Source: a bacterium
Lineage (GTDB): Bacteria > Patescibacteriota > Minisyncoccia > Phycocordibacterales > UBA9973
Assembly (NCBI GenBank): GCA_037130655.1
Contig: JBAXSP010000006.1
Location: forward strand, 1-37,147
DNA: 37,147 nucleotides
Direction: 5' to 3'
Part shown: positions 7,239-37,085 of the stretch, in pieces
Layout: each line of letters opens with the position of its first letter
Numbering within the stretch: position 1 is the stretch's first letter
Notes under the pieces: generated by a model
What the model saw: the letters and a program-made list of their open reading frames with translations, nothing else
The model's database searches: none
Told to the model about the DNA's origin: nothing
Made by a program: the position numbers and the translations under genes

Positions 7239-7328
7239 TACTTTTTTACTATACAAAAATAAACATATTATTTTTTCTCTTGTTTTTAGACTTGCCCAAA
7301 AACGACTATTTGTGCTAGTATATTCCTT

Positions 7329-7559
7329 ATGGGAATTATACATTCAATACTGCCATCTATTCAGATCGCCCTCTCAGTTATTCTTATCATATCTATCTTG
7401 CTTCAACATCAAAGCGCCAGTGTTGGTTCTTCTTTTGGTGGAACTGAAGGTAGTTCTGTACACATGACTCGTCGTGGTTTCGAAAAAGTACTCTTTGTTA
7501 CAACTATTGTAGTTGCAATATTGTTTGCTATTTCTGCATTCATCGCCGTTTTGTTCTAA
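7329..7559 (+). CDS. secG: Preprotein translocase subunit SecG
   Basis: 76 aa, two TM helices, ILLQ...GSSFGG...RRGFEKVL. Confidence 0.92.
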   Translation: MGIIHSILPSIQIALSVILIISILLQHQSASVGSSFGGTEGSSVHMTRRGFEKVLFVTTIVVAILFAISAFIAVLF

Positions 7560-7619
7560 TCCCTAAAAGCCCAAATATACCTGTGGCTTTTTTCTCTATC
7601 TCAACACAATAATTACACT

Positions 7620-9431
7620 ATGAAAAAACTATTATCTTTTTTGAGTGACTTACGTAAAGTAAGTTTTCGCTCAATAAAAAATGTCTTTTATTTCCTTACA
7701 ATTAAAGAATGGCTTATCGTCACAGGACTTTGTCTTGTTATCTTGGTTTCAGCACTCTCTCTATTAAATAGAATTAATGAAAAATTTATGGTTGCAATAC
7801 CGGCAGCTGGAGGAAATTTGTCTGAAGGAATTGTCGGCGGACCACGGTTCATCAACCCGGTACTCGCACTGTCTGATTCTGACCGAGATCTAACTGAATT
7901 AGTCTTTTCTGGACTTATGCGACGTGGCAGTGACGGAATTCTAATTCCAGATTTGACAGAAAAATATACTGTTTCTCCAGACGGACTATCATACACATTT
8001 ATATTGAAAGACAATCTTACTTTTCAAGACGGAAAGAAATTGACTGCCGATGATGTGGTGTTTACTATCAATCAAGCACAAGATCCATTGGTCAAAAGTC
8101 CAAAACGTGCAAACTGGGAAGGAATCACTGTTGTTGCACAAGATGAAAAAACTGTTTTGTTTAGACTGAAAAGTCCGTTCCCTGATTTCTTGGACAATGC
8201 GACTATCGGTATTATTCCAAAACACATCTGGTCAACTATCCCAACAGAACAATTATTTTTTTCAACAAAAAATACTAATGCAATTGGCTCTGGTCCGTAC
8301 AAAATTTCTTCAGTCAGTACCGGCAAAGACGGTATCGTAAATAGTATTTCATTGAAGCGATTCAAAAAATTTGCATTAGGTGAACCTTTTATCAAATCAA
8401 TTGATCTTCATTTTTATGACAATGAAGATGATGCAGTAAAAGCACTTCGTAGTGGTACCGTTGATCAAGTAGCAAATATTTCAGCAGAAAACGCTGTGTC
8501 ATTGAAAGATGATTACACCGTTGTTTCTACTCCACTTCCTCGTGTATTCGGACTCTTTTTTAATTCAAACAAAGCACCTGTTTTTGCAAACAAAGCAGTA
8601 ACAAAAGCAATTGATACTGCGCTTGATAAACAAGAAATTATCGACACCGTACTTGGTGGATATGGTACACAGATATCAGGTCCACTTCCCGCTTCATTGA
8701 TAGAAAGTTCAGCTATGGAAGCGTCATCAAAAACAACTAGTGCTGATGACAAAATTCTTGCTGCTCGTACGATATTGATTGGCGCTGGATGGAAACTTGG
8801 AGATGATGGAGTTTTTTCAAAAGGTGGAAATAAGTCAGTAACCGTAACAGAAAAGAAAGGAAAGAAGATGGTGAAAAAAACAGTTGTACAAAACACACCG
8901 ACAACAACAATCAATTTTACTATCACTACTGCTGACACCCCTGAACTCGTCAAAGCAGCTGAACTTATCAAAGAGCGTTTGACCGCTGTTGGTATGGTGG
9001 TAAATACTCGAGTCTATGAAAACGGCGCCCTAACAAGCAATGTGATTAGACCTAGAGACTTTGAAGTGCTATTATTTGGACAAGTAGTAAGCTCTCCTTC
9101 TGACCTGTCAGCCTTTTGGGAATCATCTCAACGGAATGACCCAGGACTCAACATTGCGTCATATGCAAACACACAAGTTGATACACTACTTGCAAAAGCA
9201 AAGAAAGAAACAAATGAATCAAAACGTAACGATATTTACTTGCAAGTAAATACACTCATTGCCAATGACTCACCTGCAGTCTTTCTCTATAGCCCTGACT
9301 TAATCTACGCAACACGACACAATGTATATGGACAAAACATTACTTCTGTCAGAAATGCATCAGACCGTTTTTCATCAATATATAAATGGTATGAAGAAAA
9401 AGATTTTATATGGAAATTATTCGTTAAATAA
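7620..9431 (+). CDS. Peptide ABC transporter substrate-binding protein (family 5), membrane anchored
   Basis: LVFSGL, SPDGLSYTFILK...FQDGKKLTADDVVFT, IGSGPYKI motifs; N-terminal TM helix. Confidence 0.9.
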   Translation: MKKLLSFLSDLRKVSFRSIKNVFYFLTIKEWLIVTGLCLVILVSALSLLNRINEKFMVAIPAAGGNLSEGIVGGPRFINPVLALSDSDRDLTELVFSGLMRRGSDGILIPDLTEKYTVSPDGLSYTFILKDNLTFQDGKKLTADDVVFTINQAQDPLVKSPKRANWEGITVVAQDEKTVLFRLKSPFPDFLDNATIGIIPKHIWSTIPTEQLFFSTKNTNAIGSGPYKISSVSTGKDGIVNSISLKRFKKFALGEPFIKSIDLHFYDNEDDAVKALRSGTVDQVANISAENAVSLKDDYTVVSTPLPRVFGLFFNSNKAPVFANKAVTKAIDTALDKQEIIDTVLGGYGTQISGPLPASLIESSAMEASSKTTSADDKILAARTILIGAGWKLGDDGVFSKGGNKSVTVTEKKGKKMVKKTVVQNTPTTTINFTITTADTPELVKAAELIKERLTAVGMVVNTRVYENGALTSNVIRPRDFEVLLFGQVVSSPSDLSAFWESSQRNDPGLNIASYANTQVDTLLAKAKKETNESKRNDIYLQVNTLIANDSPAVFLYSPDLIYATRHNVYGQNITSVRNASDRFSSIYKWYEEKDFIWKLFVK

Positions 9432-9448
9432 ATTATTACAATTCAGTT

Positions 9449-11395
9449 ATGAATGAACAAGAACAAAACAACAATACCGGTGGACAGCAACATACTGCTC
9501 GACGTCCGTATCACAAAACAGAACAAACAAGACCTGCATCAAATTCAGACAAAGCTTTTGATCGGCAAACAAACATAAAAGACCGACCAGGACGAACACC
9601 AAAACGTGCAGGAACTTTTCAATACTCAAAATTTGGCGGTGGACGCAAACCAAAAGCCCCAACCGAACCAATGGAAAAAGTATCAACCAAAAAAGTGACT
9701 GACAACATTCCACCAGTGGCACCAGGAAATATCCGTATTATCCCCCTTGGAGGAGTAGAAGAAATCGGACGAAACACAACATTAATCGAAACAGCTGATG
9801 ACATTATTGTTATCGACGCTGGTATGCAATTCTCAAATGAAGAAACACCAGGTATCGACTACATGGTGGCAAACACAAAATACCTTGAGGAACGCAAAGA
9901 TAAAATTCGTGCGATGATCGTCACTCACGGTCACTTGGATCACATTGGAGGTATTCCAATTGTGATGTCACGTATCGGCAATCCACCACTGTATTCTCGA
10001 AACCTTTCACTCTTGCTTATCAAAAAACGACAAGCTGAGTTCCCTCACCTACCACCACTAAACATGATTCCTGTTGAAGGAAATCAAACAATTACTGTTG
10101 GAAAATTTCGTGTGAGATTTTTTGGAGTGACACACACTATTCCAGACTCAATGGGTATCATTATTGAAACTCCGTACGGAAACATTGTGACACCTGGTGA
10201 CTACAAACTCGATCACATGGATGGAATTCCAACTGATTCAGAAGAAAAAGAATACAAAGAATTCGATACTGCAAACAACTTGCTCTTGATGACTGATTCA
10301 ACGAACATTGAAAACGAAGGATTCGCTTTACCTGAAATCAAAGTGCATGAAGGATTGGAAAAACTCATCAAGATTGCAACTGGACGCACCATTATTGCGG
10401 CGTTTGCATCACACATCACTCGTTTGGTGAAAATCGTACAAATTGCTGAAGCATTGAATAAAAAAGTTGCTATTGAAGGACGTTCAATGAAAACAAACAT
10501 GGAAGTTGTTGAGCAAGCTGGATTGTTTGCGTACAAAAAAGGTACCTTAATCGGTATTGAAGAAGTAGACAACTACCCTGCTGATCGTGTCATCATTTTG
10601 ATGACTGGTGCCCAAGGTGAAGAATTTGCTGCGCTCAATCGTGCTGCCAACAAAACACACAAGAAATTCAAACTTCGCAAAGGAGATACGATTATCTTGT
10701 CTGCATCTATTATTCCTGGAAATGAACGTGCTGTTGAAAAACTGAAGGACGGTATCGCCCGCCAAGGAGTGAAGATCATTTCTTACCGAACATCTGAAGA
10801 ATACATTCACGGAACAGGTCACGGAAACCAAGAAGACATCAAATGGTTGCACCGAAAGATTCATCCGAAATTCTTTGTTCCGATTCACGGAAACCATTTC
10901 CGATTACAATTACACAAAGATTTGGCTGTATCACTTGGTATGCCAGAAGAAAACGTTGTTGTGCCTGATAATGGAATGATTATTGAAATTCAAGACAATG
11001 GAAACAAAATTGTTGTCCTCAAAGAAAAAGCACCTTCTGACCCTATGATGATCGACGGATTCTCTGTTGGTGATGTACAAGACGTAGTCATTCGTGACCG
11101 CCAAATGCTCGCACAAGACGGCATGTTTGTAGTCATTGGTACAATCGATAGTAAGACTGGTAAGTTGAAAAAATCTCCTGATGTTATCTCTCGTGGATTC
11201 GTCTACTTGAAAGAAAATCAAGAACTACTTCGACAAGCACGTATGCTCATCAAGAAAACAATTGAGGAAAACAGTCGTCCAAATATCAATGACACTGAGT
11301 ACGTCAAAAATATGGTTGGCGAAACACTCTCTCGTTTCTTGTTCCAAAAAACAGCGAAACGACCATTGGTCATCCCAGTTATCATTACCGTTTAA
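9449..11395 (+). CDS. rnj: Ribonuclease J
   Basis: IIPLGGVEEIGRN, THGHLDHIGG, GAQGE, PIHG, RPLVIPVI; ~90-aa charged N-terminal extension. Confidence 0.95.
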   Translation: MNEQEQNNNTGGQQHTARRPYHKTEQTRPASNSDKAFDRQTNIKDRPGRTPKRAGTFQYSKFGGGRKPKAPTEPMEKVSTKKVTDNIPPVAPGNIRIIPLGGVEEIGRNTTLIETADDIIVIDAGMQFSNEETPGIDYMVANTKYLEERKDKIRAMIVTHGHLDHIGGIPIVMSRIGNPPLYSRNLSLLLIKKRQAEFPHLPPLNMIPVEGNQTITVGKFRVRFFGVTHTIPDSMGIIIETPYGNIVTPGDYKLDHMDGIPTDSEEKEYKEFDTANNLLLMTDSTNIENEGFALPEIKVHEGLEKLIKIATGRTIIAAFASHITRLVKIVQIAEALNKKVAIEGRSMKTNMEVVEQAGLFAYKKGTLIGIEEVDNYPADRVIILMTGAQGEEFAALNRAANKTHKKFKLRKGDTIILSASIIPGNERAVEKLKDGIARQGVKIISYRTSEEYIHGTGHGNQEDIKWLHRKIHPKFFVPIHGNHFRLQLHKDLAVSLGMPEENVVVPDNGMIIEIQDNGNKIVVLKEKAPSDPMMIDGFSVGDVQDVVIRDRQMLAQDGMFVVIGTIDSKTGKLKKSPDVISRGFVYLKENQELLRQARMLIKKTIEENSRPNINDTEYVKNMVGETLSRFLFQKTAKRPLVIPVIITV

Positions 11396-11397
11396 AA

Positions 11398-11435: not shown

Positions 11436-11479
11436 GTGATAAACAGGTCATTCAACTAACTCTTTGTTATAATAAAGAA

Positions 11480-12649
11480 ATGTTACGACGCATATATGTC
11501 ATCGCTTTTCTTTTTTGTTTTCACAGTGCACTAACTGCATATGTTAATTCGAGTATTGCCCAATCACTTGTCGGAGAAAAATTGACTGGCATTTTATATG
11601 CAACAGCCTCTTTGTGTACACTTGTTTGTCTGTCTTTTTTTCCACGAATCCTTCATCTTTTTGGAAACAGAAAAACATTTATTAGTTTATTGTCGCTGAC
11701 AGTGCTTTTATTGATAACACTATCGCAAATTCCCTCTCAAGCAGTTGGTGTTGTTGCTCTTATTGCATACATTGTCATTAATACTCTTGTGTTCTTCTCG
11801 CTGGATGTTTTTATTGAACACTGGAGTACTACCGTAGATGTTGGAAAAATTCGTGGACTCTATCTGATGATCAGTAATATCGGATGGATGTTTGCACCGT
11901 TGTTTTCTAGCAGATTAGCTGGTGCAGGTTTACCGCTTGTATACCTTGGTGCATCGAGTATTGTGTTTCTTGCGGTATTACTGAGTATTTTTTTGATAAA
12001 AAATTATGACGATAAAAACTACACAAGAAAAACACTCTTAGAGACACTTCGAACCGTCATCAAAAGAACTACCTTGTGGCCAATTATTGCACTAAACTTT
12101 CTCCTGCAGTTTTTCTTTTCATGGATGGTTATCTATACACCGCTCTATCTTCGAGAAGTATTACATTTGTCATGGGAACAACTTGGTATTATTTTTTCAA
12201 TCATGCTCTCAGCGTTTGTATTGGTACAATACCCCATCGGTAGATTCATAGACAAAGGAGCCTCACTTCGTCTTATATTGACCGGTGGTTTCGTGGTAAT
12301 ACTTGGAGCAACAGCAACACTACCGTTTGTAACACAAGATAATCTAGTCTTTTTGGCAATAGTATTATTTCTCACTCGAGTAGGAGCAGCGACAATAGAA
12401 GTATGTACTGACACGTATTTCTTCCGACAAATAACAGACAGCGATACTCATATCCTCTCATTGTATCGAGATATGTCTCCTTTTGCCTATGTCATTGGAC
12501 CAATAACCGCGACAACACTCCTCTATTTTAAACTTCCATTGGTTAGTTTATTTTTTATTTTAAGCAGTATTTTAGCGCTGAGTTTTATTTTTATCCCACT
12601 ACTTACAAGCTCTAAAGTAGCGAAAACAGAAACTTTACAGATATCATAA
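11480..12649 (+). CDS. MFS transporter
   Basis: About 12 hydrophobic segments and a PIGRFIDKG loop motif. Start moved to ATG 11480 because the TTG at 11417 lies inside the terminator. Confidence 0.85.
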   Translation: MLRRIYVIAFLFCFHSALTAYVNSSIAQSLVGEKLTGILYATASLCTLVCLSFFPRILHLFGNRKTFISLLSLTVLLLITLSQIPSQAVGVVALIAYIVINTLVFFSLDVFIEHWSTTVDVGKIRGLYLMISNIGWMFAPLFSSRLAGAGLPLVYLGASSIVFLAVLLSIFLIKNYDDKNYTRKTLLETLRTVIKRTTLWPIIALNFLLQFFFSWMVIYTPLYLREVLHLSWEQLGIIFSIMLSAFVLVQYPIGRFIDKGASLRLILTGGFVVILGATATLPFVTQDNLVFLAIVLFLTRVGAATIEVCTDTYFFRQITDSDTHILSLYRDMSPFAYVIGPITATTLLYFKLPLVSLFFILSSILALSFIFIPLLTSSKVAKTETLQIS

Positions 12650-12706
12650 ATTAATGTATAGTTTAATTATCGCAGAAACAAGACACTTTGTTTCTCTTTA
12701 TTCTCA

Positions 12707-13429: not shown

Positions 13430-13499
13430 AAAACTTGTCTATGTTGACCAGTGGCTGTATTCTGACGTATTCTTATTGAGGAAAACAAGCTATACAAAA

Positions 13500-13970
13500 A
13501 TGAAGATATTTATTTTTACCGAAGATTTTACATTGAAACCTGGATACATTCACTGCACCCCAGTAGATTGGAACCAAAAACAATTAAAACTTTTTTTTAA
13601 AAAACCGTACACAAAAAAGGATGTTGTAATACACAAAAAGAATGCGAGAGTGAGTCGTAAAAAAGATATTATCATCCTTGATAGCCCTCATCATGATTTT
13701 ACTGCCAAAGCGTTACGTTTTGCAGAAGAAACAGAAATCCCACTATTGATTATAAAACACAACAATGATGCACATTTCCCAAAAGTACAGGAGTATCCAA
13801 TCATTTTCAAAAAAGAATCTGATCTAGACGAAGAAAGTATCTTTGATTTAATTCATTCAGTAAAAGACAAATTACCCCGAGGAACCGATAGGTATTTCAC
13901 AAAATTTTTTTCTGTAGAAGAGTTGGAAAAATACCGACCCAAAAAAACCACTCAACAGCTCTTTCAATAG
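13500..13970 (+). CDS. Hypothetical protein (start 13500 ATG or 13476 TTG)
   Basis: Long ORF filling the gap, followed by a terminator-like hairpin at 13954-13983; no motif recognised. Confidence 0.6.
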   Translation: MKIFIFTEDFTLKPGYIHCTPVDWNQKQLKLFFKKPYTKKDVVIHKKNARVSRKKDIIILDSPHHDFTAKALRFAEETEIPLLIIKHNNDAHFPKVQEYPIIFKKESDLDEESIFDLIHSVKDKLPRGTDRYFTKFFSVEELEKYRPKKTTQQLFQ

Positions 13971-13998
13971 AGCTGTTTTTTTTATATAATCTAGGAAT

Positions 13999-14745
13999 AT
14001 GAACGAAACTGAACAACTTAAAGCTGAGGTACAAAAACTGACCGAATTGAACGGATTAAAAAGCGACCTGATTTCAATCTCAGCTCACCAGCTACGCACG
14101 TCCCTTTCAGCGCTCAAATGGATACTCAAAATGTTTATCGACAAAGATTTTGGACCACTCACCCCTGAACAAGAAGACTTAATCAAAAAAGCATTTTCAA
14201 GTAACGAACGAATGATTGCTTTTGTGAATGAAATGCTCACGATCAACCACACTGAAGATGGCGCACTCAAATACAAATACGAAGAAGTCGATCTAATGGG
14301 ATTAATCGATGAGCTTATTTTTGATTTCTCTGGAGAAACCTATAAAAAACATATTGAGATTATTTTCCTAAAAAATAATCCTGTTAAACACATTATTGCT
14401 GATAAAGAAAAGATTCGTGTGGTATTCCAAAACTTGATTGAAAATGCAATCAAATACAGTAATGAAAATGACAAGATTTTTATTTCAGTTCACGAGCAAG
14501 AAACTGGTATTGAAGTCTCTGTCAAAGATACTGGTATTGGAATTCCTACTGAAGTACAATCGTCTATTTTCCAAAAATTCTTCCGAGCAGATAACGCAAA
14601 GACCGTTGATTCTATTGGAAGTGGTTTAGGGCTCTATACAACCAAAAACATTGTTGAATATCACGGCGGAACAATTCGTTTTGAATCGAGCGATGCTGGT
14701 ACAACTTTCTTTGTCATCCTACCCTACGTTCCACAATCTAATTAA
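13999..14745 (+). CDS. Soluble histidine kinase (HisKA + HATPase_c, no sensor domain)
   Basis: SAHQLRTSL H-box, NLIENAIKYS, DTGIGI, GSGLGLY. Confidence 0.93.
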   Translation: MNETEQLKAEVQKLTELNGLKSDLISISAHQLRTSLSALKWILKMFIDKDFGPLTPEQEDLIKKAFSSNERMIAFVNEMLTINHTEDGALKYKYEEVDLMGLIDELIFDFSGETYKKHIEIIFLKNNPVKHIIADKEKIRVVFQNLIENAIKYSNENDKIFISVHEQETGIEVSVKDTGIGIPTEVQSSIFQKFFRADNAKTVDSIGSGLGLYTTKNIVEYHGGTIRFESSDAGTTFFVILPYVPQSN

Positions 14746-14881: not shown

Positions 14882-14919
14882 CCTTGCAACCTACCAAATA
14901 GTAGACTACACTAGAGCAT

Positions 14920-15291
14920 ATGGCACAAAAAATACTGATAGTTGAAGATGATTCTTTTTTACAAGGCTTAGCTGCTGGCAAATTAACCAAGAGTGGTTTT
15001 GATGTTCACACCGCAGGAAACATTGCTGAGGCGGAAAAAAACCTAGAGGAAATAGTTCCTGATCTTATTATTTTGGATCTCGTACTTCCAGGCGGAACAG
15101 ATGGTTTCGGTATTTTGAAAAAACTTCGCGAAAACGCAAAAACAAAAGAAACACCGGTAATCATTTTCTCAAACTTAGCAGAAGAAGCGGATATGAACAA
15201 AGCCAAAGAATTAGGAGCAAATGAATTCATGGTTAAATCAAACTTTACACTTGATGAACTTGTCACAAAAATTCAAGAATTACTGAAATAA
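14920..15291 (+). CDS. Single-domain response regulator
   Basis: ILIVEDD, DLIILDLVLP, PVIIFSN, GANEFMVK; upstream TTGCAA-17-TACACT. Confidence 0.95.
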   Translation: MAQKILIVEDDSFLQGLAAGKLTKSGFDVHTAGNIAEAEKNLEEIVPDLIILDLVLPGGTDGFGILKKLRENAKTKETPVIIFSNLAEEADMNKAKELGANEFMVKSNFTLDELVTKIQELLK

Positions 15292-15748: not shown

Positions 15749-15823
15749 TGGCAATAAGTCTTAATTCCGTCATATACTCTACTCCTTTTTAAGAAATAAG
15801 CAAATCTGCGTTATACTATATAT

Positions 15824-18025
15824 ATGCAATTAGCCACCCCGATTACGAGTATTAGCCGACTGACAGACGACCAAAAAAAGGCACTTGGAAGACTTGGTCT
15901 ACACACTGTAGAAGACCTGCTTTATCACTTCCCTGCTCGGTATACTGATATTACTGATATCAAACACGTCTCTAACACAGAAGACGGTGAACGTGTCACT
16001 TTACTCGGAAAAATTCACGGGCTCAAAACAAAAAAGACCTTCAAAACAAAAACGGCTATGGCCGAAGGAGTTTTTGAAGATATCAGTGGGACAATCAAAG
16101 TTGTTTGGTTCCATCAACCATACCTGGCAAAAATGATAAAAGACGATACTATTGTCAAAATTTCTGGCATCATAACTGTTCATGAGCAATATGGTAAAAG
16201 TATACAAAATCCTGAAATAGAAAAATTGGATACGTTACCTATCGATATATCAGATTCATTGTTTGCAAACACTGACACACAACTCTCTTCTTTCGGATAC
16301 CCTGTCTATTCTGAAACACGTGGCATTACGTCGAAATGGATGTATCACACCATCCAAAAATTATTCAATCAAAATATTTTGGATAGTATTGAAGAATACA
16401 TTCCAGAACATATTTTGAAAATGTATTCATTGCCTGATATCAAAAAAGCATTGGTTTGGATTCACTCACCACAAAAAAAGGAACACGCTGAAGCAGCACG
16501 AAAACGATTTGCGTTTGAAGAAATCTTTTTGATTCAACTCATTCGACTCCAAGACAAAGCTCGCTTTGCACAAGAAAAAACCTACACCATCGAAAATACA
16601 AAAGTGCTCATCAAAGAATTTACCGACAAACTTCCCTTCCCTTTAACTGACGGACAAAATAATGCAATCAAAACAATTGCAGAAGATTTGGAAAAAGAAC
16701 ACCCAATGGCCAGACTTGTCGAAGGAGATGTTGGTAGTGGTAAAACACTCGTCGCCGCAGCTGCAGCATATGCAGTCGTCCACAACCGTCCGACAAGCAA
16801 CAAGACCCAAAAGGTTCAAACTTTTGGCAACTTGCAAGTTGCCTATATGGCACCAACTGAAATCTTGGCAACACAGCAATTTGAAAGTTTTATTGAATAT
16901 ATCAGACCAACCGGATTATCAGTTGCACTGATTACCAGTTCTGGTTGTAAAAAATTCCCATCGAAAGTAGCAAGTAACACCAAAGGTTGGACCGAAATAT
17001 CAAAAACACAATTATCAAAATGGATTGCAAATGGCGAAATTCCGGTCATTATCGGCACGCATTCACTCATCCAAAAATCAGTCAAATTCAAACATTTGGC
17101 TTTGGCTATTGTTGACGAACAACACCGCTTCGGAACTAAACAACGCCAAGCACTCGCCCGCAAAGAATCTGACAACAAAATCCACGCACCACACTTCCTC
17201 TCAATGACAGCGACCCCAATTCCCCGCACCCTCGCACTCACCCTCTATGGCGACCTTGATTTATCAATCATCGATGCGATGCCACCAGGAAGAAAACCAG
17301 TGGAAACAAAAATCATCTCACCAAATGCAAGAGAGAAAATGTATGCAGAAGTACGAAGAGAACTTGAAGCTGGGCGACAAGTCTATATTATTTGTCCGCG
17401 TATCAATGAACCTGATCCTGAACTTGAAATCAAATTACAACTCAAATCAGTTGAGACAGAAGCAAAGCGTTTGAAAAAAGATATTTTTCCAAAATATGAA
17501 ATAGACGTACTTCATTCAAAAATGAAAAAGGAAGAAAAAGACGAAACAATGAAAGCGTTCGCAAGAAAAGAAATCGATATTCTTGTAGCAACATCTGTGG
17601 TTGAAGTCGGTGTCAATGTACCAAATGCAACCGTCATCATAATCGAAGGAGCAGAACGTTTTGGTCTGTCTCAGTTGCACCAACTTCGTGGACGCGTGAT
17701 TCGTGGAACTCACCAACCATATTGTTTCTTGGTGCCGGATACCAAGAGCGACAAAACAAAAGACCGGTTGAATGCATTGGTCAATGCAAAGAATGGTTTT
17801 GAATTGGCAGAACTTGATCTCTCGCTTCGAGGCGCTGGAGAACTTTCTGGGTTCAAACAATGGGGTGTATCAGATCTCGCAATGGATGCAATCAAGAATA
17901 TCAAACTCGTTGAAATCGCTCGAAATGAAGCAAAAAAGATTATTGAAAAAGATTTGGATCTAATCACCTTCCCTCTGCTTGCTCAAAAAGCTCAAGCAAA
18001 AAATGTATTGCTTCATTTTGAATAA
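15824..18025 (+). CDS. recG: ATP-dependent DNA helicase RecG
   Basis: GDVGSGKT, MAPTEILA, DEQHRFG, MTATPIPRTL, AERFGLSQLHQLRGRV. Confidence 0.97.
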   Translation: MQLATPITSISRLTDDQKKALGRLGLHTVEDLLYHFPARYTDITDIKHVSNTEDGERVTLLGKIHGLKTKKTFKTKTAMAEGVFEDISGTIKVVWFHQPYLAKMIKDDTIVKISGIITVHEQYGKSIQNPEIEKLDTLPIDISDSLFANTDTQLSSFGYPVYSETRGITSKWMYHTIQKLFNQNILDSIEEYIPEHILKMYSLPDIKKALVWIHSPQKKEHAEAARKRFAFEEIFLIQLIRLQDKARFAQEKTYTIENTKVLIKEFTDKLPFPLTDGQNNAIKTIAEDLEKEHPMARLVEGDVGSGKTLVAAAAAYAVVHNRPTSNKTQKVQTFGNLQVAYMAPTEILATQQFESFIEYIRPTGLSVALITSSGCKKFPSKVASNTKGWTEISKTQLSKWIANGEIPVIIGTHSLIQKSVKFKHLALAIVDEQHRFGTKQRQALARKESDNKIHAPHFLSMTATPIPRTLALTLYGDLDLSIIDAMPPGRKPVETKIISPNAREKMYAEVRRELEAGRQVYIICPRINEPDPELEIKLQLKSVETEAKRLKKDIFPKYEIDVLHSKMKKEEKDETMKAFARKEIDILVATSVVEVGVNVPNATVIIIEGAERFGLSQLHQLRGRVIRGTHQPYCFLVPDTKSDKTKDRLNALVNAKNGFELAELDLSLRGAGELSGFKQWGVSDLAMDAIKNIKLVEIARNEAKKIIEKDLDLITFPLLAQKAQAKNVLLHFE

Positions 18026-24900: not shown

Positions 24901-25020
24901 TTAGCGATTATATCATAATTTTCAAAGAAAATTTGAATTTTCCTACCAAGAAAATTCACGTCGAAAGAATTTTATAGACTTCGTCTATAAAATTTTTCGA
25001 CCCCGTGGTACGATAGAAAT

Positions 25021-25458
25021 ATGTCACTTATTCGCAACAAAAAAGCCAATTTCAATTATGAAATTGTCGACAAAATGGAAGCAGGAATCCAGCTCACCGG
25101 ACAAGAAGTGAAGTCTATTCGTGCTGGCCAAGGTAACATCGACAGTGCGTTCGTCGTCTTTTCTGACGGAGAACTGGAACTCGTTGGAATGAATATTCCG
25201 CCGTATCAGCCGAAAAACACCTCACCAGCATATGACCGCGAACGCACTCGAAAACTCCTTGTCAGCAAGAAACAGATCCGTGATTTGATTACCGAACGTG
25301 ACGCCAAAAAATTGACACTATTCCCTGTTTCGTTGTACAATAAGGGCACCAAAATCAAAGTAGAAATTGCTTTGGGAAGAGGTAAAAAAGTGTTCGACAA
25401 ACGCGAAACAATCAAAAAGCGTGATGTTGAGCGAGAGATACGAAGAGTGATGAAATAA
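25021..25458 (+). CDS. smpB: SsrA-binding protein
   Basis: NKKANFNY, EAGIQLTGQEVKSIR, RTRKLL, GKKVFDKRETIK; adjacent to tmRNA. Confidence 0.97.
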   Translation: MSLIRNKKANFNYEIVDKMEAGIQLTGQEVKSIRAGQGNIDSAFVVFSDGELELVGMNIPPYQPKNTSPAYDRERTRKLLVSKKQIRDLITERDAKKLTLFPVSLYNKGTKIKVEIALGRGKKVFDKRETIKKRDVEREIRRVMK

Positions 25459-26205: not shown

Positions 26206-26234
26206 TTGACATAAATATTATAATATGCTATACT
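26206..26234 (+). promoter_or_regulatory. sigma70 promoter
   Basis: TTGACA-17 nt-TATACT with extended -10 TG. Confidence 0.75.
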
Positions 26235-27563: not shown

Positions 27564-27902
27564 TCAAGATGACCTGTTGTATTGAACTTTCTGATATTCA
27601 AAATTTGCTGACCTGCCCCAAAAACAAATTTCACCTTCTTTAAGTGTCATAAAGCGTGGCTTACAACTGATACACTTGCCTTGTTCGTTATAAATAATTT
27701 CCACAGAAAAAGCATGGCCGAGAAAACGAACATTTTTATCTTTTCCAACAATTAGAAGACGTGGACCCCAAAATTCAAAGTGTGACTCATGAAGAACTCT
27801 TGTCCCTGACATACCGGCAGAGCTAGCTGAATGAAACATGTTCGTTGTTTTTTTAACCAAAAAGACAGTAAGATTACGAATAAATGCGTTTATTTTTTTC
27901 AT
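27564..27902 (-). CDS. Hypothetical protein (start 27902 or 27935)
   Basis: ORF filling the gap upstream of truB; no motif recognised. Confidence 0.5.
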   Translation of the reverse strand: MKKINAFIRNLTVFLVKKTTNMFHSASSAGMSGTRVLHESHFEFWGPRLLIVGKDKNVRFLGHAFSVEIIYNEQGKCISCKPRFMTLKEGEICFWGRSANFEYQKVQYNRSS

Positions 27903-28060
27903 TTTAAGACTATTTTTCCCTTCATTACAATACAAATAAAATACAATAAAATCAAGCTTATTTTTAGACCCTCAAGCCACGTCCTTAGAAACTTGCTTTT
28001 TTTGGATTTATAAGCTATTATTGACCTTACGAAACCGTCTATGTTTTCGTATTTCTTACA

Positions 28061-29967: not shown

Positions 29968-31335
29968 TTAGAAATCTAGTTCTACTACATCTCCTTGTTC
30001 TGGTGCAGTTGCGTCAATCGTCAAATAGTCACGAAGTCGTTGCACAAGAAAAGTTGCAGATTTTGGTTCACCCATTACTACGAACACTTTCTTGACTCGG
30101 TCTTGAACATTTTCTACGAACTGTATCAAGTGATTTGAATCCTTGTGCCCTGAATAACCATCAATCTTGGCAATCTGAGCCTTGACTGCAACTTCTTGCC
30201 CATTGATACGCACACTCTTTGCCCCTTCGAGAATTGTTCGCCCCAGTGTTCCAAGTGACTGAAAACCGGTAAGCAAGAGGGTGTTTTTTTCATCAGGAAG
30301 ATAGTTGAGTTCGTGATGCAGAATTCGCCCACCGTTAGACATTCCAGAACCAGCAATAACAACCTTGGGACTTGGTGCGTGTAAAATTGCTTTTGAATCG
30401 TCTGTTTCTGGTGTTGATTGTAGTCCTGGAAAAATAAAAATATCATCCCCTGACTTTACGTGAGCTTGTGCTACATCGTTGAAATAATGTGTATAATTTC
30501 TATATACTGCAGTCAATTTGATCGCAAGCGGTGAATCAAAAAAGATCGGCATTTGTGGAATGCGTTTGTGTTCAACCAAATCATTGATTTCAAAGAGCAT
30601 TTCCTGACTTCGTTCAAGTGAGAATGTTGGTACAACAAGGACTCCTCCTCGGCGATAATTGTCTTCAAGAAATCCTTCAAGTTTCTTTTTGCGCATATCA
30701 CGATCTTCGTGATTTCGGTCTCCGTACACAGACTCCATAACCAAGTAATCCACATCACCAAGTGGTTCTGTATCACGCAAAAGTGGTGACGGAGAGTTTC
30801 CAAGGTCTCCAGTAAAGACAATGGTCTTGCCATTATATTTAAGCTCAAGCATTGCTGAACCTAAAATATGCCCTGAGTCGAGGAATTTACCTGTAAATCC
30901 GTGGTCGATATTGATAGCTTGATGATATGGCACACCTTCCCATAATTTCATTACTTGCTCCAATATTTCGTGTGTATAAATCTTATCGAGATTATGTTCC
31001 TCATCGTGTGACAAAATCTGAATGGTATCTTCAAGCATTGGACGAGCAAGATCGTGAGTTGCGTCAGTAGAAATAATTCTTCCACGAAAACCATCATGCA
31101 CCAACTTTGGAATACGTCCGATATGATCAATGTGCGCATGAGTAACAAACAAAATATCAATTTTTGTCAGATCATACGGAAAAGCAGACCAGTTTGTTTC
31201 ATCAGCAAGTCCTGTCCCCTGTTCTAGTCCGCAGTCAATAATAAATTTTTTATCTTCATTTTCAATCAAAAAATTGGCACCAGTAACTGAGCCAGTACCC
31301 GCACAAAACGTCAATTTTAGTTTTTTCTTTTCCAT
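29968..31335 (-). CDS. MBL-fold beta-CASP nuclease (YSH1/CPSF-like)
   Basis: VTGANFL, THAHIDHIG, SGHILGS, MESVYGDR, SGMSNGGRI, YSGHKD. Confidence 0.92.
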   Translation of the reverse strand: MEKKKLKLTFCAGTGSVTGANFLIENEDKKFIIDCGLEQGTGLADETNWSAFPYDLTKIDILFVTHAHIDHIGRIPKLVHDGFRGRIISTDATHDLARPMLEDTIQILSHDEEHNLDKIYTHEILEQVMKLWEGVPYHQAINIDHGFTGKFLDSGHILGSAMLELKYNGKTIVFTGDLGNSPSPLLRDTEPLGDVDYLVMESVYGDRNHEDRDMRKKKLEGFLEDNYRRGGVLVVPTFSLERSQEMLFEINDLVEHKRIPQMPIFFDSPLAIKLTAVYRNYTHYFNDVAQAHVKSGDDIFIFPGLQSTPETDDSKAILHAPSPKVVIAGSGMSNGGRILHHELNYLPDEKNTLLLTGFQSLGTLGRTILEGAKSVRINGQEVAVKAQIAKIDGYSGHKDSNHLIQFVENVQDRVKKVFVVMGEPKSATFLVQRLRDYLTIDATAPEQGDVVELDF

Positions 31336-31339
31336 TACT

Positions 31340-31723
31340 TTATTTTAACATTAAGCGTCTTAAAAGAATGAGGGAAAAAGTTCCACCTGCCATATCAAAA
31401 AATAGATCCGAAGTAGAGTCGAGTGGATTTGCCAAATTTGAACCAGTTAGTATTTGAATTGCATATTCATAACCTTCCCACATCACCCCAATAGCAAACA
31501 CACCGAGTAGTGTAATGATGATTTTTTCTCGATTTGAACTCTGTTTGTCGGTATAAGCAATCACCAGCAACATCAACAGTCCCAAGAAATACCCTCCGAG
31601 AAAATGCATTGGCATATCAAACCACCAAATCGATGAATACCAGTAGAATTTGTGAGCGAGTGTGTTGAGCCCCCAGACAATTAAAATAGTAAAAAGAAGT
31701 TTTTTGCGAAGTGTTTGTAACAT
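31340..31723 (-). CDS. Small integral membrane protein
   Basis: About 4 TM segments; WWFDMPMHFLGG, WEGYEY, DSTSDLFFDMAG (DUF2238/VanZ-like pattern). Confidence 0.75.
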   Translation of the reverse strand: MLQTLRKKLLFTILIVWGLNTLAHKFYWYSSIWWFDMPMHFLGGYFLGLLMLLVIAYTDKQSSNREKIIITLLGVFAIGVMWEGYEYAIQILTGSNLANPLDSTSDLFFDMAGGTFSLILLRRLMLK

Positions 31724-31771
31724 GGAAGTAATTATATAATGACCAATAACTAATGACTAATTCTAGTAGAA

Positions 31772-32661: not shown

Positions 32662-35424
32662 CTTGCGGTATTTTGCCATAATTTCGGCTTCTACTTCTTC
32701 TCGCAGTCTACCGTATTTAACATATGAAAGTTCTTTCAATGAATCAACAATTGCTTTATTCCCTACTGGAAATTCTGCCAAATGCATATTGAATGGTTTT
32801 TGTGTTGGTACACCATTTACAATCATCGAAACGTACGCATTCAAATTTTCTTGCTTCGTAATATCACTTGCGGTAAAGGTCGGAGCAAATTTTGATTCCA
32901 AGAATGTTGCATCTTCTGGAGACACGCGCATGACACACATTGAGCCCACGTTTCCAAAGATTGCATTCTTTGTATCTTCTGGAAGCTGTGCAATGTATTG
33001 GTGAGCCACATTCAATGACAATCGATATTTTCGAGCTTCGGACAAAATAGATGCGATTGCTGGAGTGGTGACGTTTTGGAATTCATCGATATACAAATAG
33101 AAATCATTTTTTTGTTCACCGCGCATATCAGTTCGAGAAAGTGCAGCCATTTGAATCTTGCCAACCAAAATGAGGCCGATCAAATTCGCATTGATTTCTC
33201 CCAATCGTCCTTTTGACAAATTGACCAACAAAATCTTTTTCTCGTCCATAATCTTTCGAAAATTAAAGACTGAATTTTGTTGTCCAATAACTGGTCGCAT
33301 AATGTCGTTTGAAACAAATGGATCAAACTTACTCGAAATATATGGCACGAAGTTTGCCAATCCTTGATCCCCTGTTGTCGCCTCAGCGGCTGTCCAGAAT
33401 TGATGGATGATTGGATTTTTACATTTAGATAATTTCAAATCTCTGAATGCTTTGTCTTGCAATACACGAGTAATTTCAAGCAATGTTGAACCAGATTCTG
33501 GGTCTTCCATGACAAGCATCGCAGCATTTCTGAAATATTGTTCAAACATCGCCCCGCCACCGGCTTTCATATCGAAGAGTTGATTGAAGATATTCATCAT
33601 CTCGTTGATGACAAAGGTCTTTTGTTCAGGAAATCGTTCATCATATTCGAGCATATTGAGCCCCATTGGACGCGCAGTATATGCTGGATCAAAGTAAATC
33701 ACATCATCGATACGGTGCGGTGGAATATACGAAAGAATATCTTGCACATCGTCACCGTGTGGATCGATAAAACAACAACCGTCACCATTTTCAATATCTT
33801 GTTTGATGAGCTGTTTAAGAGTGACTGTTTTACCAGTTCCTGTCTGACCGATCACATACAAGTGGCGCATACGATCTTCTCGGGAAAAATGAATTGGTGT
33901 ACGGACCCCGCGGTATTCGTTGTACCCGAGCAATACGCCATTTTTACTCATCTCAATTGGAGCAGGACCTTGACCTGCGCGAGCTTGCTCAACATTAACC
34001 ATAGAACCGATACCGTATGGAAAGTGCACAAGCGTAGCCAATTCTTTCAAATTCATTACCATTCGTTCATCGTCTCTAAAATTACGAAAGGTAAAATCTC
34101 GTGCAACTTCAGTTTGATTATTCTTTTTCAGTTCTTTGAAATGGATTGCATTGCTTCCCGCTCGAGTAAATTGAGCAAAAACTGATTCAAGGTCATTCAA
34201 CATACTTTTTGCGCGATCTGCTGTTTCAGCAGAAGTAAACATACGAATATTTACTCCGGTCATTGTACTCTTTAATTTATCATTGATTGCAGAAACAACT
34301 TTTTCATCAGGCTCCTTTTTTTCTTCTTTCTTTTCATCTTTTTCATCAGAGTCACTAAACATTCCGAACAATGGATTGAAAATCAAATCCTTGGTTGCAT
34401 TTTTTAAGTCTGTATCAAACTCACCAAAAATACCACTTTTTTCCTTTTCTATTTTTTCACCTTTTTGTGCTTGCCCAAGTAAACTATGAAAATGTTTGAT
34501 TGACCCTTCATCACTTGGACGAATGATAAATTGAATGGCTGCACCTTCACCCGTTGCTTTGATTTTGTTGAATGCATTGATGATTGATTCTATTGGGTCT
34601 TGATCGAGCATGTCATAGGTCTTGATTGGAAACACATCATTCTCTGCATAAAAACCTACCGCACCAGAAACAGCACAATTTGGCGCAAAAATATTGTAGT
34701 CATTCGGAGCTTCTTCAATACGAGCAAGCGGATAGACTGAAAGTAATTGTTTTTCAAATAATTCTATTTTTGATCGCGGAACACCAACAAACAATACAAC
34801 TTGCTCTTCGTTGTGTGAAATAGTAAATTCAATTGAATAATGACTTTCGTCTTTGTTATCTCTACCGTCTCCAATAAATTGCATTCCTGCAAAAAATTGC
34901 TCAATTGCACCAAGGATAATTTTCCAATCACGTGTATCTGATGCGTTTTTGTCTGGCATTGAAATCTTGAACAATGCCGTATTCAACGATTTATGCAAAG
35001 CTGTCCCCTCTTTGAGTCCAGGAATTTTTTGTTCAGCAATAAGATACTGCACCAAAAAACGATGAAAATCATCTTCAATGTGTGGGTCGTTCATTTTTTC
35101 GACAACTGACAACGCATTACGAACACCTTTTGAAAGTAAAATACCGAGTAATTCTTCCATCGTTCGATCATGAGATTCTGGTTCAAGTCTAAGTACCAGT
35201 GCCTGCTCGTGCTTTTCTGGAAGATGTAACGATTGTGCGAGCACTTGTTCTTTTGGTACCTCAGCGTATTGTTTAACAACTTCAAGAGAAGCTTGTTCTT
35301 TGGGATTTTCGTGACCTTCCCGTTTGAGTAACGCTTCGCGTTCTTTGAGGTGATTACGTAAATAGAGTAATTCTTCTTCTGGACTAGAAAAATTTTGAGA
35401 AATGATTTGCTCTTTGAATTGCAT
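32659..35424 (-). CDS. VirD4/TrwB/HerA-like ATPase (type IV secretion coupling-protein-like)
   Basis: RMRHLYVIGQTGTGKT, FIDPHGD, LYIDEFQN, LSEARKYRL..AHQYIAQL, AIFGNVGS. Confidence 0.88.
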   Translation of the reverse strand: MQFKEQIISQNFSSPEEELLYLRNHLKEREALLKREGHENPKEQASLEVVKQYAEVPKEQVLAQSLHLPEKHEQALVLRLEPESHDRTMEELLGILLSKGVRNALSVVEKMNDPHIEDDFHRFLVQYLIAEQKIPGLKEGTALHKSLNTALFKISMPDKNASDTRDWKIILGAIEQFFAGMQFIGDGRDNKDESHYSIEFTISHNEEQVVLFVGVPRSKIELFEKQLLSVYPLARIEEAPNDYNIFAPNCAVSGAVGFYAENDVFPIKTYDMLDQDPIESIINAFNKIKATGEGAAIQFIIRPSDEGSIKHFHSLLGQAQKGEKIEKEKSGIFGEFDTDLKNATKDLIFNPLFGMFSDSDEKDEKKEEKKEPDEKVVSAINDKLKSTMTGVNIRMFTSAETADRAKSMLNDLESVFAQFTRAGSNAIHFKELKKNNQTEVARDFTFRNFRDDERMVMNLKELATLVHFPYGIGSMVNVEQARAGQGPAPIEMSKNGVLLGYNEYRGVRTPIHFSREDRMRHLYVIGQTGTGKTVTLKQLIKQDIENGDGCCFIDPHGDDVQDILSYIPPHRIDDVIYFDPAYTARPMGLNMLEYDERFPEQKTFVINEMMNIFNQLFDMKAGGGAMFEQYFRNAAMLVMEDPESGSTLLEITRVLQDKAFRDLKLSKCKNPIIHQFWTAAEATTGDQGLANFVPYISSKFDPFVSNDIMRPVIGQQNSVFNFRKIMDEKKILLVNLSKGRLGEINANLIGLILVGKIQMAALSRTDMRGEQKNDFYLYIDEFQNVTTPAIASILSEARKYRLSLNVAHQYIAQLPEDTKNAIFGNVGSMCVMRVSPEDATFLESKFAPTFTASDITKQENLNAYVSMIVNGVPTQKPFNMHLAEFPVGNKAIVDSLKELSYVKYGRLREEVEAEIMAKYRK

Positions 35425-35440
35425 AGATAAAGTATAACAG

Positions 35441-35530: not shown

Positions 35531-35538
35531 TAAAATTG

Positions 35539-36312
35539 TTATTCTAACTCCGTTAGAATAATTGGTCCATCTTCGGTAATAGCAACTGTATGTTCAAAAT
35601 GAGCTGATTTTGATCCATCAGCGGTCTTAATAGTATATCCATCTGATAGTGAGACAATATCTGGTTTGCCGATGGTAATCATTGGTTCAATAGCAATCAC
35701 CATTCCCGGCTGAAGCAGTACTCCTGCGCCATTTTTGCCGTAGTTTGGAATGTATGGATCTTCATGAATATGTTTTCCAACCCCATGCCCCGCAAGTTCT
35801 CGAACAACACCGAAACCATGTGGACGAACAACCGCAGATACTGCGTAGCCAATATCACCAGTCTTATTACCAACTTTTGCCATAGCGATTCCTGCCATCA
35901 ATGATTCTTTTGTGACTTGCAATAACTCTCTCGTCACTTTCGTTCCCTCACCAACAATAACTGTCGTTGCGTGATCAGTAAACAATCCTTTGTGCTTGAG
36001 TCCGCAGTCGATTGAAACAACATCACCATTTTTCAAAATAGTTTCTTTCTTGGGAATTCCATGCACGATTTCACTGTTGACTGACACACACAATGCACAC
36101 GGAAATGGCGTAGGAGCTCCTTCAGGACGATAATTGAGGAATGCTGGAATATCTCCCCCTTCTGCAATCAGTTCCAGTGCTCGCTCTTCTAGATCCCAAG
36201 TACTCATACCAGCTTTTGTTTCTTTTGCTAATGTATCCACAATAAAAGCCAAGCGTTTTCCACCTTCTTTCAAAATCCCTATTTCTTCTTTTGTTTTGAT
36301 TATGATTTTCAT
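35539..36312 (-). CDS. map: Methionine aminopeptidase type I
   Basis: CVSVNSEIVHGIP, DVVSIDCG, GHGVG..IHEDP, AIEPM, SAHFEHTV. Confidence 0.97.
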   Translation of the reverse strand: MKIIIKTKEEIGILKEGGKRLAFIVDTLAKETKAGMSTWDLEERALELIAEGGDIPAFLNYRPEGAPTPFPCALCVSVNSEIVHGIPKKETILKNGDVVSIDCGLKHKGLFTDHATTVIVGEGTKVTRELLQVTKESLMAGIAMAKVGNKTGDIGYAVSAVVRPHGFGVVRELAGHGVGKHIHEDPYIPNYGKNGAGVLLQPGMVIAIEPMITIGKPDIVSLSDGYTIKTADGSKSAHFEHTVAITEDGPIILTELE

Positions 36313-36486
36313 TCTAATTTATTTTTCAATTACACAAATTGGATAATTTCCTGGATTACTTCCGCCCCCGAGATCAAGACATTTATCATTATACCAAAAA
36401 GTTTTCCATTGAATGCCTGACCAAAAAGAAAGTAGCATCGCAACAATTATTAATATAATTTTTAAATATTTTGTCATATATACCTT

Positions 36487-37071
36487 TTATACTAGTTCTA
36501 TATTTTTTATAATTTCTTCATGAACTTCCTCTATTGTTTGCTCTCCATTTATATCGTGAAATTTGTACATTGGAAGTTCGTGGAAATACGCCATTGCTGG
36601 AATGACATTCCAATCAAACCAAGACAAGCGTTTCTGTATTTCATCTGCATGATCATCTGCACGCCCTCGCCCAAGGAGCCGCTCTGTTGCCCATTCCTCT
36701 GAAACATTCACATAGACAACATGCATATGTTCTCTTCCCAAGAAACGTAACGCATTATCCAAAATTGGGGCTTCGTGCGGACGACGAGCAACGCCATCCA
36801 AAATCAAATCCTCATCACCTGAAACATTTTTAACTAAAAAATCTGACCACATCCAGATTGGTAAAAATTCTGGCAACAATTCACCGTGAGCCATTTGTTC
36901 TTTGGCTTTTTGTGCAGCAAAAGAATCACCTTCGATAAAAGCACGAAAAGCTGCACCTGTTTCGATATACCGAACAGTACGCCCTGCTTTTTCTAATTGC
37001 TCTTTGAGTAGTTGCGCCTGTGTCCCCTTACCGGCACCTGAGCGACCGAAGAAAATGTATGTAGAATTCAT
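36487..37071 (-). CDS. adk: Adenylate/nucleoside monophosphate kinase, short-LID type
   Basis: GRSGAGKGTQA, ILDGVARR, RGRADD. Confidence 0.8.
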   Translation of the reverse strand: MNSTYIFFGRSGAGKGTQAQLLKEQLEKAGRTVRYIETGAAFRAFIEGDSFAAQKAKEQMAHGELLPEFLPIWMWSDFLVKNVSGDEDLILDGVARRPHEAPILDNALRFLGREHMHVVYVNVSEEWATERLLGRGRADDHADEIQKRLSWFDWNVIPAMAYFHELPMYKFHDINGEQTIEEVHEEIIKNIELV

Positions 37072-37085
37072 ATAAGGTAATTATA

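Follow-up and report, generated by a model that had tools for sequence, protein, structure and literature searches.

The window analysed here is a 37,147-nt stretch of contig JBAXSP010000006.1, from a patescibacterial genome with the CPR-like traits of small size (630 kb) and an insert-bearing 16S rRNA gene, and with a GC content of 38%. Of its 28 gene starts, 13 carry a TAnnnT hexamer separated from the ATG by a spacer of 6–8 nt. Eleven of these boxes had been listed in a preliminary description made from the sequence, and all 11 were recovered at the same coordinates and spacers; the other two lie before the genes for RNase J and a beta-CASP RNase. The 13 sites are as follows.

430..445 (box 440–445), minus strand: DUF192 gene; TACACT, spacer 7, ATG 432
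7316..7331 (box 7316–7321), plus strand: secG (gene 7329–7559); TGnTAGTAT, spacer 7, ATG 7329
9437..9451, plus strand: RNase J gene, newly added; TACAAT, spacer 6, ATG 9449
11468..11482 (box 11468–11473), plus strand: MFS transporter gene; TGnTATAAT, spacer 6, ATG 11480
13985..14001 (box 13985–13990), plus strand: histidine kinase gene; TATAAT, spacer 8, ATG 13999
14907..14922 (box 14907–14912), plus strand: response regulator gene; TACACT, spacer 7, ATG 14920
15812..15826 (box 15812–15817), plus strand: recG; TATACT, spacer 6, ATG 15824
24898..24912 (box 24907–24912), minus strand: ftsH; TGnTATAAT, spacer 6, ATG 24900
25009..25023 (box 25009–25014), plus strand: smpB, divergent from ftsH; TGnTACGAT, spacer 6, ATG 25021
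31333..31347, minus strand: beta-CASP RNase gene, newly added; TGnTAAAAT, spacer 6, ATG 31335
31721..31736 (box 31731–31736), minus strand: gene 31340–31723, no Pfam match; TATAAT, spacer 7
35422..35436 (box 35431–35436), minus strand: VirD4/TraG-like ATPase gene; TGnTATACT, spacer 6, ATG 35424
37069..37085 (box 37080–37085), minus strand: adk; TATAAT, spacer 8, ATG 37071

Pfam agrees with every gene name given to the listed set, and the domains begin at residues 1–10 of the assigned ATGs. An extended -10 TGn, said to be present in several of the listed boxes, is found in five of the 11 (secG, MFS, ftsH, smpB and VirD4-like). As to the surroundings of the sites, a terminator (507..471) lies just 38 nt upstream of the DUF192 ATG and the histidine kinase box adjoins the T-run of another (13954–13977), whilst the RNase J gene lies 17 nt past the upstream gene and the beta-CASP RNase gene 4 nt past the stop of its upstream neighbour.

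Across the whole genome, TAnnnT is found 6–8 nt before the ATG of 141 of 342 operon-first genes, compared with a mean of 42.4 and a maximum of 53 in control windows (41% at first-gene starts versus 12% in control windows of the same intergenic regions), which is the positional enrichment over an AT-rich background that had been anticipated from the window. In a histogram of TAnnnT before the first ATGs of 600 genes, spacers 6, 7, 8 and 9 form the peak (101, 66, 57 and 56 genes), with only ~12–36 genes at each spacer from 10 to 43; among in-gene ATGs of the genome, only 4–6% have the hexamer at spacer 6–8. TANNNT ranks first in enrichment among 64 XYNNNZ patterns, the leading hexamers being TATAAT (34 versus 4.9 expected) and TATACT (32 versus 2.4). 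Counting from the promoter instead, 96 of 231 intergenic TGNTANANT sites have an ATG at spacer 6–9, as against ~3 at each other position. Neither GTG nor TTG is enriched at the box-spaced position: ATG alone follows the box. A cross-validated PWM gave an excess of 32–37% of first genes and 28–30% of all genes. In all these counts starts were taken as the first ATG of each ORF by a simple gene caller, which could inflate or blur the signal. The architecture, previously called pervasive, extends to ~30% of all genes and ~35–40% of first genes above background rather than to every gene, and roughly half of the first genes lack a box of this kind.

Taken over the entire window, TANNNT-N6/7/8-ATG as a bare pattern is no commoner than in shuffled sequence (26, 22 and 24 matches versus 28.0, 27.7 and 27.5); the above-chance part is the link between box and gene start, not the number of patterns. 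The same spacer peak is seen in genomes G008 and G028. In one same-family genome (with proteins 40–65% identical in the pairs printed), the orthologue box is kept in 37 of 70 cases, compared with 20 of 79 where the genome studied here has no box (Fisher p = 7e-4); in the more distant G054 the difference is not significant (12/48 versus 8/47).

Several properties of the boxes are those of promoters. Extended -10 TG, at positions -3 and -2 of the box, accompanies 49% of the 141 start-proximal boxes but only 10.5% of 457 other intergenic TANNNT, a fivefold enrichment in spite of the G-poor region, and is absent from all 26 boxes at spacer 5. At the first -35 position T reaches 60%, yet a -35 match of at least 4/6 at spacing 17 occurs in 12% of start-proximal boxes and 11% of controls, indicating a weak or absent -35 element. 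A classical -35/-10 consensus scan of the window gave no excess (37 versus 52.2 and 57 versus 55.3 in shuffles), and is uninformative here since the leaderless class has no -35. Of the 36 tRNA genes, 17 have TGNTANNNT within the 70 nt upstream of them. At spacers 8, 9 and 10, A occupies the seventh position past the box in 77%, 56% and 70% of genes, and the base in front of it is most often T (53%, 49% and 36%, respectively); at the modal spacer of 6 the canonical start falls on the A of the ATG. The TG, the A-at-7 rule, the use before tRNA genes and the restriction to ATG support the view that the boxes probably act as promoters rather than ribosome sites; the first three also favour the earlier proposal that the spacing would put the transcription start at the AUG or adjacent to it.

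The 16S rRNA gene lies in the same window.

5025..6898, minus strand: 16S rRNA gene (Rfam RF00177, 1313.9 bits)

Its 3' tail (about 5025–5045) has no CCUCC anti-SD, bearing out the anti-SD loss on which the preliminary description had drawn. The anti-SD is rarely lost from 16S rRNA, and CCUCC is present in 29 of the best-scoring 30 phylum-level 16S genes; the altered tail is nevertheless shared by 13 of 13 same-order relatives with a recovered 16S 3' end, and CCUCC is also missing from one further genome of the class. In keeping with this, SD 4-mers at spacers 0–10 before 340 first genes number two in total, and G makes up 4–8% of positions -13 to -7. A search for uL1 (PF00687) in the 100% complete genome found none, with controls at 14/14. 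Operon-internal genes mostly start 1–5 nt past the upstream stop. T occupies position -1 in 61–78% of starts and the initiator tRNA has A37; at this frequency T(-1) may be a main start-context signal. We also asked whether T(-1) marks anti-SD loss and rejected the idea, as its frequency is 0.11–0.55 in genomes with an SD peak before gene starts, with no clean tie (among these genomes, which include G051 and G085, CCTCC was read directly in G067 and G052 only).

We consider it likely, on sequence grounds, that sigma-70-type -10 boxes placed at start codons give rise to leaderless mRNAs that are translated by a leaderless route in a cell devoid of anti-SD. In this scheme the TAnnnT hexamers would be -10 elements, about half of them extended (TGnTAtaaT), with little or no -35. 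At spacer 6 RNA polymerase would begin exactly at the A of the ATG, and at spacers 7–9 it would begin 1–3 nt earlier, leaving no room in the mRNA for a ribosome-binding site, and a ribosome carrying initiator tRNA would bind the 5'-terminal AUG; the gene shares above background would then be the leaderless shares. The proximity of operon-internal starts to the upstream stop suggests re-initiation, and U at -1, borne by nearly all native genes, could bring A37 of the initiator tRNA into the codon–anticodon pairing. A leaderless mode fits a 16S rRNA without anti-SD. Support in silico comes from the hexamer with its spacing and promoter features, from the absent SD and anti-SD and from the partial conservation in relatives. 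Three metatranscriptome runs (found through the same sample or study) each contain 2–3% of sampled words, and what their contigs cover of 7001–27000 is the tmRNA plus 25 nt of a tRNA, with no mRNA 5' ends; the actual transcription starts and the mode of ribosome loading are deduced from the sequence.

Of the other explanations, the one that fares best, although we think it improbable, is that the boxes are real promoters but that protein comes mostly from longer transcripts or downstream starts, the leaderless route being minor. With many boxes lying within or just past upstream genes, there must be read-through transcripts, and the genome encodes a four-domain S1 protein as well as IF3, a factor that works against leaderless initiation in E. 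coli. Against this, such transcripts have no signal, SD or otherwise, to serve them, and both the exclusive use of ATG after the box and the position of the Pfam domains argue for the assigned starts. Terminators moreover divide many boxed genes from their upstream neighbours: 27 end no more than 45 nt upstream of an ATG, with a box at spacer 6–9 in 17 cases.

Still less probable is that TAnnnT is an RNA-level element, a non-SD ribosome-binding site or enhancer on leadered mRNAs that perhaps pairs with the altered 16S tail. Such an element might be expected from the conservation of the tail (GGAWUNWUUCAA) across the order, from the enrichment of the motif before operon-internal genes (40/167 versus 9.3 expected) and from a weak, non-significant excess of tail-complementary words before internal genes (p = 0.07–0.11). 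UAUAAU, however, is not complementary to the tail, and tail-complementary words are not enriched relative to 300 shuffled tails before first genes or all genes (p = 0.26–0.63), on which basis we rejected an alternative SD pairing with the tail; the TG, the A-at-7 rule, the use before tRNA genes and the terminators adjoining boxes are moreover what promoters would show. TGn is less frequent in the operon-internal boxes (11/48), so some of these may be there by chance. Their existence also tempers the proposal that it is housekeeping first-genes that are leaderless: the leaderless set of the window is indeed housekeeping, but boxes precede some operon-internal genes as well. That the hexamers are functionless chance products of AT-rich intergenic DNA is scarcely credible: although upstream regions are ~80% A+T and whole-window counts match shuffles, the sharp peak at spacers 6–9, the first rank among composition-matched patterns, the excess over control windows, the TG enrichment and the conservation at orthologues all speak against it.

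The proposed leaderless organisation can be set beside known systems. In group C of GeneMarkS-2, a Pribnow box lies 6–8 nt from operon-first starts and 25–50% of operons are predicted to be leaderless, with Mycobacterium tuberculosis, Streptomyces, Corynebacterium and Deinococcus-Thermus as examples (Lomsadze et al. 2018, PMC6028130). Both features recur here: the -10 motif has the same position before operon-first genes, and the leaderless share, judged by 141/342 versus ~42 and by the PWM excess of 32–37%, falls within about 25–50% of operons. In group C the other genes have an SD-type RBS and the 16S rRNA keeps its anti-SD, neither of which is true here; nor is this phylum among those named for group C in the main text (PMC6028130). 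The architecture is thus of the group C type but without any SD class. A non-SD RBS of the group B type does not describe it, for the anti-SD is absent and the motif is promoter-like and stronger at first genes.

In an anti-SD-less subgroup of Parcubacteria the 16S 3' end lacks CCUCCU (Tsurumaki et al. 2022, RNA, PMC9297842), and the uL1 result obtained here matches the overlap reported there between anti-SD-less and uL1-lacking lineages (PMC9297842). That paper, in the portions available, reports the loss and holds that SD helices are probably not formed; its text uses ‘leaderless’ 0 times and leaves the mode of initiation undescribed. Bacteroidia likewise have genes without SD and A-rich, G-poor pre-start regions, but their anti-SD is kept and sequestered and their mRNAs are leadered, whereas here the anti-SD is gone and many genes appear leaderless (PMC7797042, PMC13000453). 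According to Hollerer and Jeschek (2023, PMC10018350), initiation is favoured when a U immediately precedes the AUG and forms a quadruplet pairing with A37 of the initiator tRNA; in E. coli U(-1) has a modest modulating effect (PMC10018350), compared with its presence at most starts here. Our literature search, which covered the text of papers, found none on a leaderless layout in Patescibacteria, CPR, Saccharibacteria or Parcubacteria. Leaderless organisation and the loss of anti-SD in Parcubacteria are known, and what is new is the T(-1) in 61–78% of starts and a set of 49 genes, class II, described below. To the question of how start codons are chosen without an anti-SD, the genome offers a concrete and testable answer: promoters on the start codon, stop-adjacent restarts in operons and a strong U(-1) context. 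There is a consequence for annotation too, since in genomes of this kind any gene caller relying on an SD will put starts in the wrong place.

A separate set of genes would be expressed from full -35/-10 promoters with short A-rich leaders. In the window, each of the four surface-protein genes, which the preliminary description took to keep leaders, is preceded by a full -35/-10 promoter that would give a leader of some 19–90 nt.

2308..2337, minus strand: promoter of surface gene 519–2276; perfect TTGACA-18-TATAAT, spacer 31, leader ~25 nt
2474..2502, plus strand: promoter of surface gene with ATG 2540 (Por_Secre_tail); perfect TTGACA-17-TGnTATAAT, spacer 37
22848..22853, minus strand: -10 element of a 1467-aa surface protein gene with ATG 22822; TATAAT 25 nt before the ATG, leader ~19 nt
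26206..26234, plus strand: promoter of surface gene with ATG 26330; TTGACA-17-TGnTATACT, 95 nt before the ATG

Whilst the proposal holds for these four, the leadered class of the genome consists mainly of ~49 lineage-restricted genes rather than of surface genes. These 49 class II genes are AT-richer and share the module TTGACA-17-TAnnnT-N6-GGAATAAAA, with leaders of 18–25 nt. Two modules lie in the window, the coordinates of the second being derived from its leader length.

13444..13502, plus strand: class II module; TTGACC-18-TATTCT-N6-GGAAAAC..., 20-nt leader, ATG 13500, 156 aa, no Pfam match
27900..27955, minus strand: class II module; TATTGT-N6-GGG..., 18-nt leader, ATG 27902, 112 aa, no Pfam match

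We considered whether GGAAU at the 5' end of the class II leader is a displaced SD and rejected this, as the GG keeps a constant distance from the -10 box rather than from the ATG, and is missing from the same class in G008 (0/31) though the 16S tail there is similar. A phage origin of the two window genes was also rejected, tblastn against phage records giving no match.

A possible reading, which we put forward tentatively, is that SD-free initiation here serves two separately addressed pools, a core marked by U(-1) and ~49 genes that each carry a cassette, a dedicated expression module for newly gained or fast-evolving genes. The core would comprise native genes that are leaderless or stop-coupled, with U(-1) pairing with A37 of the initiator tRNA. 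The cassette, TTGACA-17-TAtnGT-N6-GGAAUAAAA with a leader of ~18–25 nt and no U(-1), would belong to ~49 unrelated, lineage-restricted, AT-richer and mostly monocistronic genes. With this cassette, ribosomes would enter at the 5' end of the short G-started leader, and the pool could be regulated apart from the core, for example via the initiating GTP. Class II, if upheld, would offer a handle on lineage-specific gene expression in ultra-small symbionts.

Two further observations concern the window. Heptamer repeats lie upstream of gene 31340–31723, as do (TAGTCAT)n repeats upstream of adk, and a likely rRNA promoter with 11 of 12 consensus matches is found ~210 nt upstream of the 16S rRNA gene.

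7117..7145, minus strand: likely rRNA promoter; TTGACA-17-TACAAT

All 11 start-proximal -10 boxes (TANNNT) named in the preliminary description were recovered from the window sequence, with the same coordinates and the same spacers between box and ATG, and the extended -10 TG (TGn) noted there for several of them is found in five of the 11. Pfam agrees with the gene names (DUF192, SecG, MFS_1, HisKA/HATPase_c, Response_reg, RecG, FtsH, SmpB, TrwB/TraG-like and ADK) and the domains begin at residues 1–10 counted from the assigned ATGs, leaving little room for alternative start codons. With two further genes, the same box layout is seen at 13 of the 28 window genes:

ATG 9449, RNase J
ATG 31335, beta-CASP RNase

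Across the whole window, bare TANNNT-N6/7/8-ATG patterns number 26, 22 and 24, against 28.0, 27.7 and 27.5 in shuffled sequence, so what exceeds expectation is not the pattern as such but its concentration at gene starts. This is clear across the genome (630,524 bp in nine contigs, 38% GC, the window being contig C6), in which a simple codon-usage caller, with every start set at the ORF's first ATG, yielded 602 genes (86% coding). Among 600 genes, TANNNT peaks at spacers 6, 7, 8 and 9 (101, 66, 57 and 56 cases), compared with about 12–36 at spacers 10–43. A box at spacer 6–8 precedes 141 of 342 operon-first genes (41%; mean 42.4 and maximum 53 in control windows farther upstream) and 40 of 167 operon-internal genes (9.3 in controls), and is found ahead of 4–6% of in-gene ATGs. 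TANNNT is the most enriched of the 64 XYNNNZ patterns, led by the hexamers TATAAT, TATACT, TAAAAT and TACAAT, and a cross-validated PWM gives an excess over background of 32–37% for first genes, 17–21% for internal genes and 28–30% for all genes. The occurrence of boxes before starts is confirmed.

Several properties of the box are those of a promoter and not of an RNA-level signal. TG lies one base 5' of 49% of the 141 start-proximal boxes but of only 10.5% of 457 other intergenic TANNNT sequences, G otherwise making up 4–8% in this region; at spacer 5, TGn is seen in none of 26. The sequence TGNTANNNT is found ≤70 nt 5' of 17 of the 36 tRNA genes, whose transcripts undergo no translation. 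The seventh base after the box, which at spacer 6 is the A of the ATG, is A in 77%, 56% and 70% of genes with spacers of 8, 9 and 10, most commonly preceded by T (53%, 49% and 36%): this is the usual pyrimidine–purine start rule at its canonical distance. Intergenic TGNTANANT sites are followed by ATG at spacer 6–9 in 96 of 231 cases, against about three per other position, and GTG and TTG show no enrichment at those spacers. Finally, 27 terminator-like hairpins end ≤45 nt 5' of a called ATG and 17 of these have a box at spacer 6–9, as in the terminator, box and ATG packing of the kinase gene (13954–13999); the gap fits a promoter and is too short for a leader. With transcription starts predicted at or beside the AUG, the leaderless reading of these boxes is supported in silico.

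Besides a tmRNA gene, which with part of a tRNA makes up all the window content of the RNA runs listed, the window carries:

5025–6898, minus strand, 16S rRNA gene, 1,874 nt
18082–18156, plus strand, tRNA-Ile, anticodon UAU
28028–28573, plus strand, infC, encoding IF3

A tRNA-Ile(GAU) is located elsewhere in the genome. The proposed loss of the anti-SD is borne out: the 16S rRNA ends in ...GGAAGCTGGTCGTGGAATGATTCAATTT, replacing CCUCC, and at spacers 0–10 the 340 first genes have two SD 4-mers in total, fewer than farther upstream. Pairing with the altered tail was rejected, as complementary words before starts are not enriched relative to shuffled tails. IF3 and a four-domain S1 protein are encoded in the genome; uL1 was not found there. 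In infC, the IF3_N domain begins near 28073, upstream of the earliest ATG in frame (28139); with no in-frame ATG ahead of the domain, the gene must start at some other codon, TTG at 28061 for example, recalling the non-canonical start used for autoregulation of E. coli infC.

Operon-internal genes typically start 1–5 nt past the upstream stop, which suggests that they are translated by re-initiation. T occupies position -1 in 61% of first and 78% of internal genes, compared with 24% of all ATGs, and is in excess with or without a box; where an internal gene has no promoter, this T must therefore exert its effect in the RNA. Pairing of U(-1) with A37 has been documented for the E. coli initiator tRNA (PMC10018350). 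The initiator tRNA here (C1:165552–165623) has A37, making such quadruplet pairing possible.

Promoters with a good -35 element form a second, discrete class, with the ATG 21–30 nt past the hexamer in 40 cases (about 4.5 in spacing controls). Selecting solely for TANNNT-N6/7-GG and a leader of 14–32 nt yields 49 such genes (class II), with the logo TTGACA-17-TAtnGT-N6-GGAATAAAA and leaders of 18–25 nt; the GG holds a fixed position with respect to the box and therefore probably marks the start of transcription. The 49 proteins are mutually unrelated, their genes are of lower GC (34.3% against 38.2% in the rest) and atypical codon usage, 40 are apparently monocistronic, and the T(-1) preference is missing (33%). 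In G008, a genome of the same family, one of 49 class II genes has a homologue, against 105 of 241 box genes (44%; p = 7e-10). Two lie in the window:

13444–13502, plus strand, ATG 13500
27900–27955, minus strand, ATG 27902

Each has homologues in one of three same-genus genomes and in none of 27 other relatives, and one homologue retains the whole module. The contrast drawn earlier between leaderless housekeeping genes and leadered surface-protein genes holds, but its scope is wider: given the lineage restriction of class II, it is part of a contrast between core and lineage-restricted genes. Two surface proteins of the window carry domains unusual in a CPR genome:

2438–4708, plus strand, 722–756 aa, C-terminal Por_Secre_tail (T9SS C-terminal sorting)
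18419–22822, minus strand, 1467 aa, Peptidase_S74 (endosialidase chaperone, tail-fibre type)

Among genomes of the same order for which the 16S 3' end was recovered, CCTCC is missing in 13 of 13, all of which have a tail resembling GGAWTNWTTCAA; it is also missing from one genome of the same class, and is present in 29 of the 30 best-scoring 16S sequences at phylum level. Analysed alike, 400 kb of G008 and 381 kb of G028 (same order) have the box peak at spacer 6–8 and no SD peak, with a small rise in SD words at G028 first genes; G054 (same class) has a weak box peak. G008 orthologues keep the box in 37 of 70 cases and have one in 20 of 79 where this genome has none (Fisher p = 7e-4; 62 of 211 pairs, out of register at their N-termini, dropped); in the pairs printed, proteins are 40–65% identical and upstream DNA is too diverged for comparison by eye. 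For G054 (48 of 143 dropped) the difference was not significant. Four relatives (G067, G052, G051 and G085) have SD peaks before starts, CCTCC being read directly in G067 and G052 only, together with a box peak at spacer 6 that is smaller and, in G052, marginal. Promoter-adjacent starts are therefore not confined to the clade lacking the anti-SD and seem widespread in the phylum. In the CPR genomes G067 and G085 (loci L075–L094 and L173–L182), the SD peaks are clear and the TANNNT peak is at first genes.

The architecture is already known in kind. GeneMarkS-2 group C, typical of Actinobacteria and Deinococcus-Thermus, has a Pribnow box 6–8 nt from first-gene starts and 25–50% leaderless operons (PMC6028130). 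This genome matches group C as there described in its box position and in its predicted share of leaderless operons but differs in that its remaining genes lack SD-type sites and its rRNA the anti-SD. About half of Parcubacteria have lost the anti-SD, overlapping the group lacking uL1 (Tsurumaki 2022, PMC9297842); the word 'leaderless' does not occur in that publication. A literature search, supplementary tables aside, found no published account of leaderless organisation in this group, and the SD-free form is new.

Tandem heptamers, (TAGTCAT/TTAGTCA)n, at 37086–37120 and 31737–31765 (both minus strand) reach the -10 boxes of adk and the gene at 31723 and therefore supply the '-35' region (TAGTCA-17-TATAAT). 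Perfect long palindromic hairpins with stems of 19–20 bp, at 4794–4834, 7193–7239 and 22943–22989, have terminator scores on both strands.
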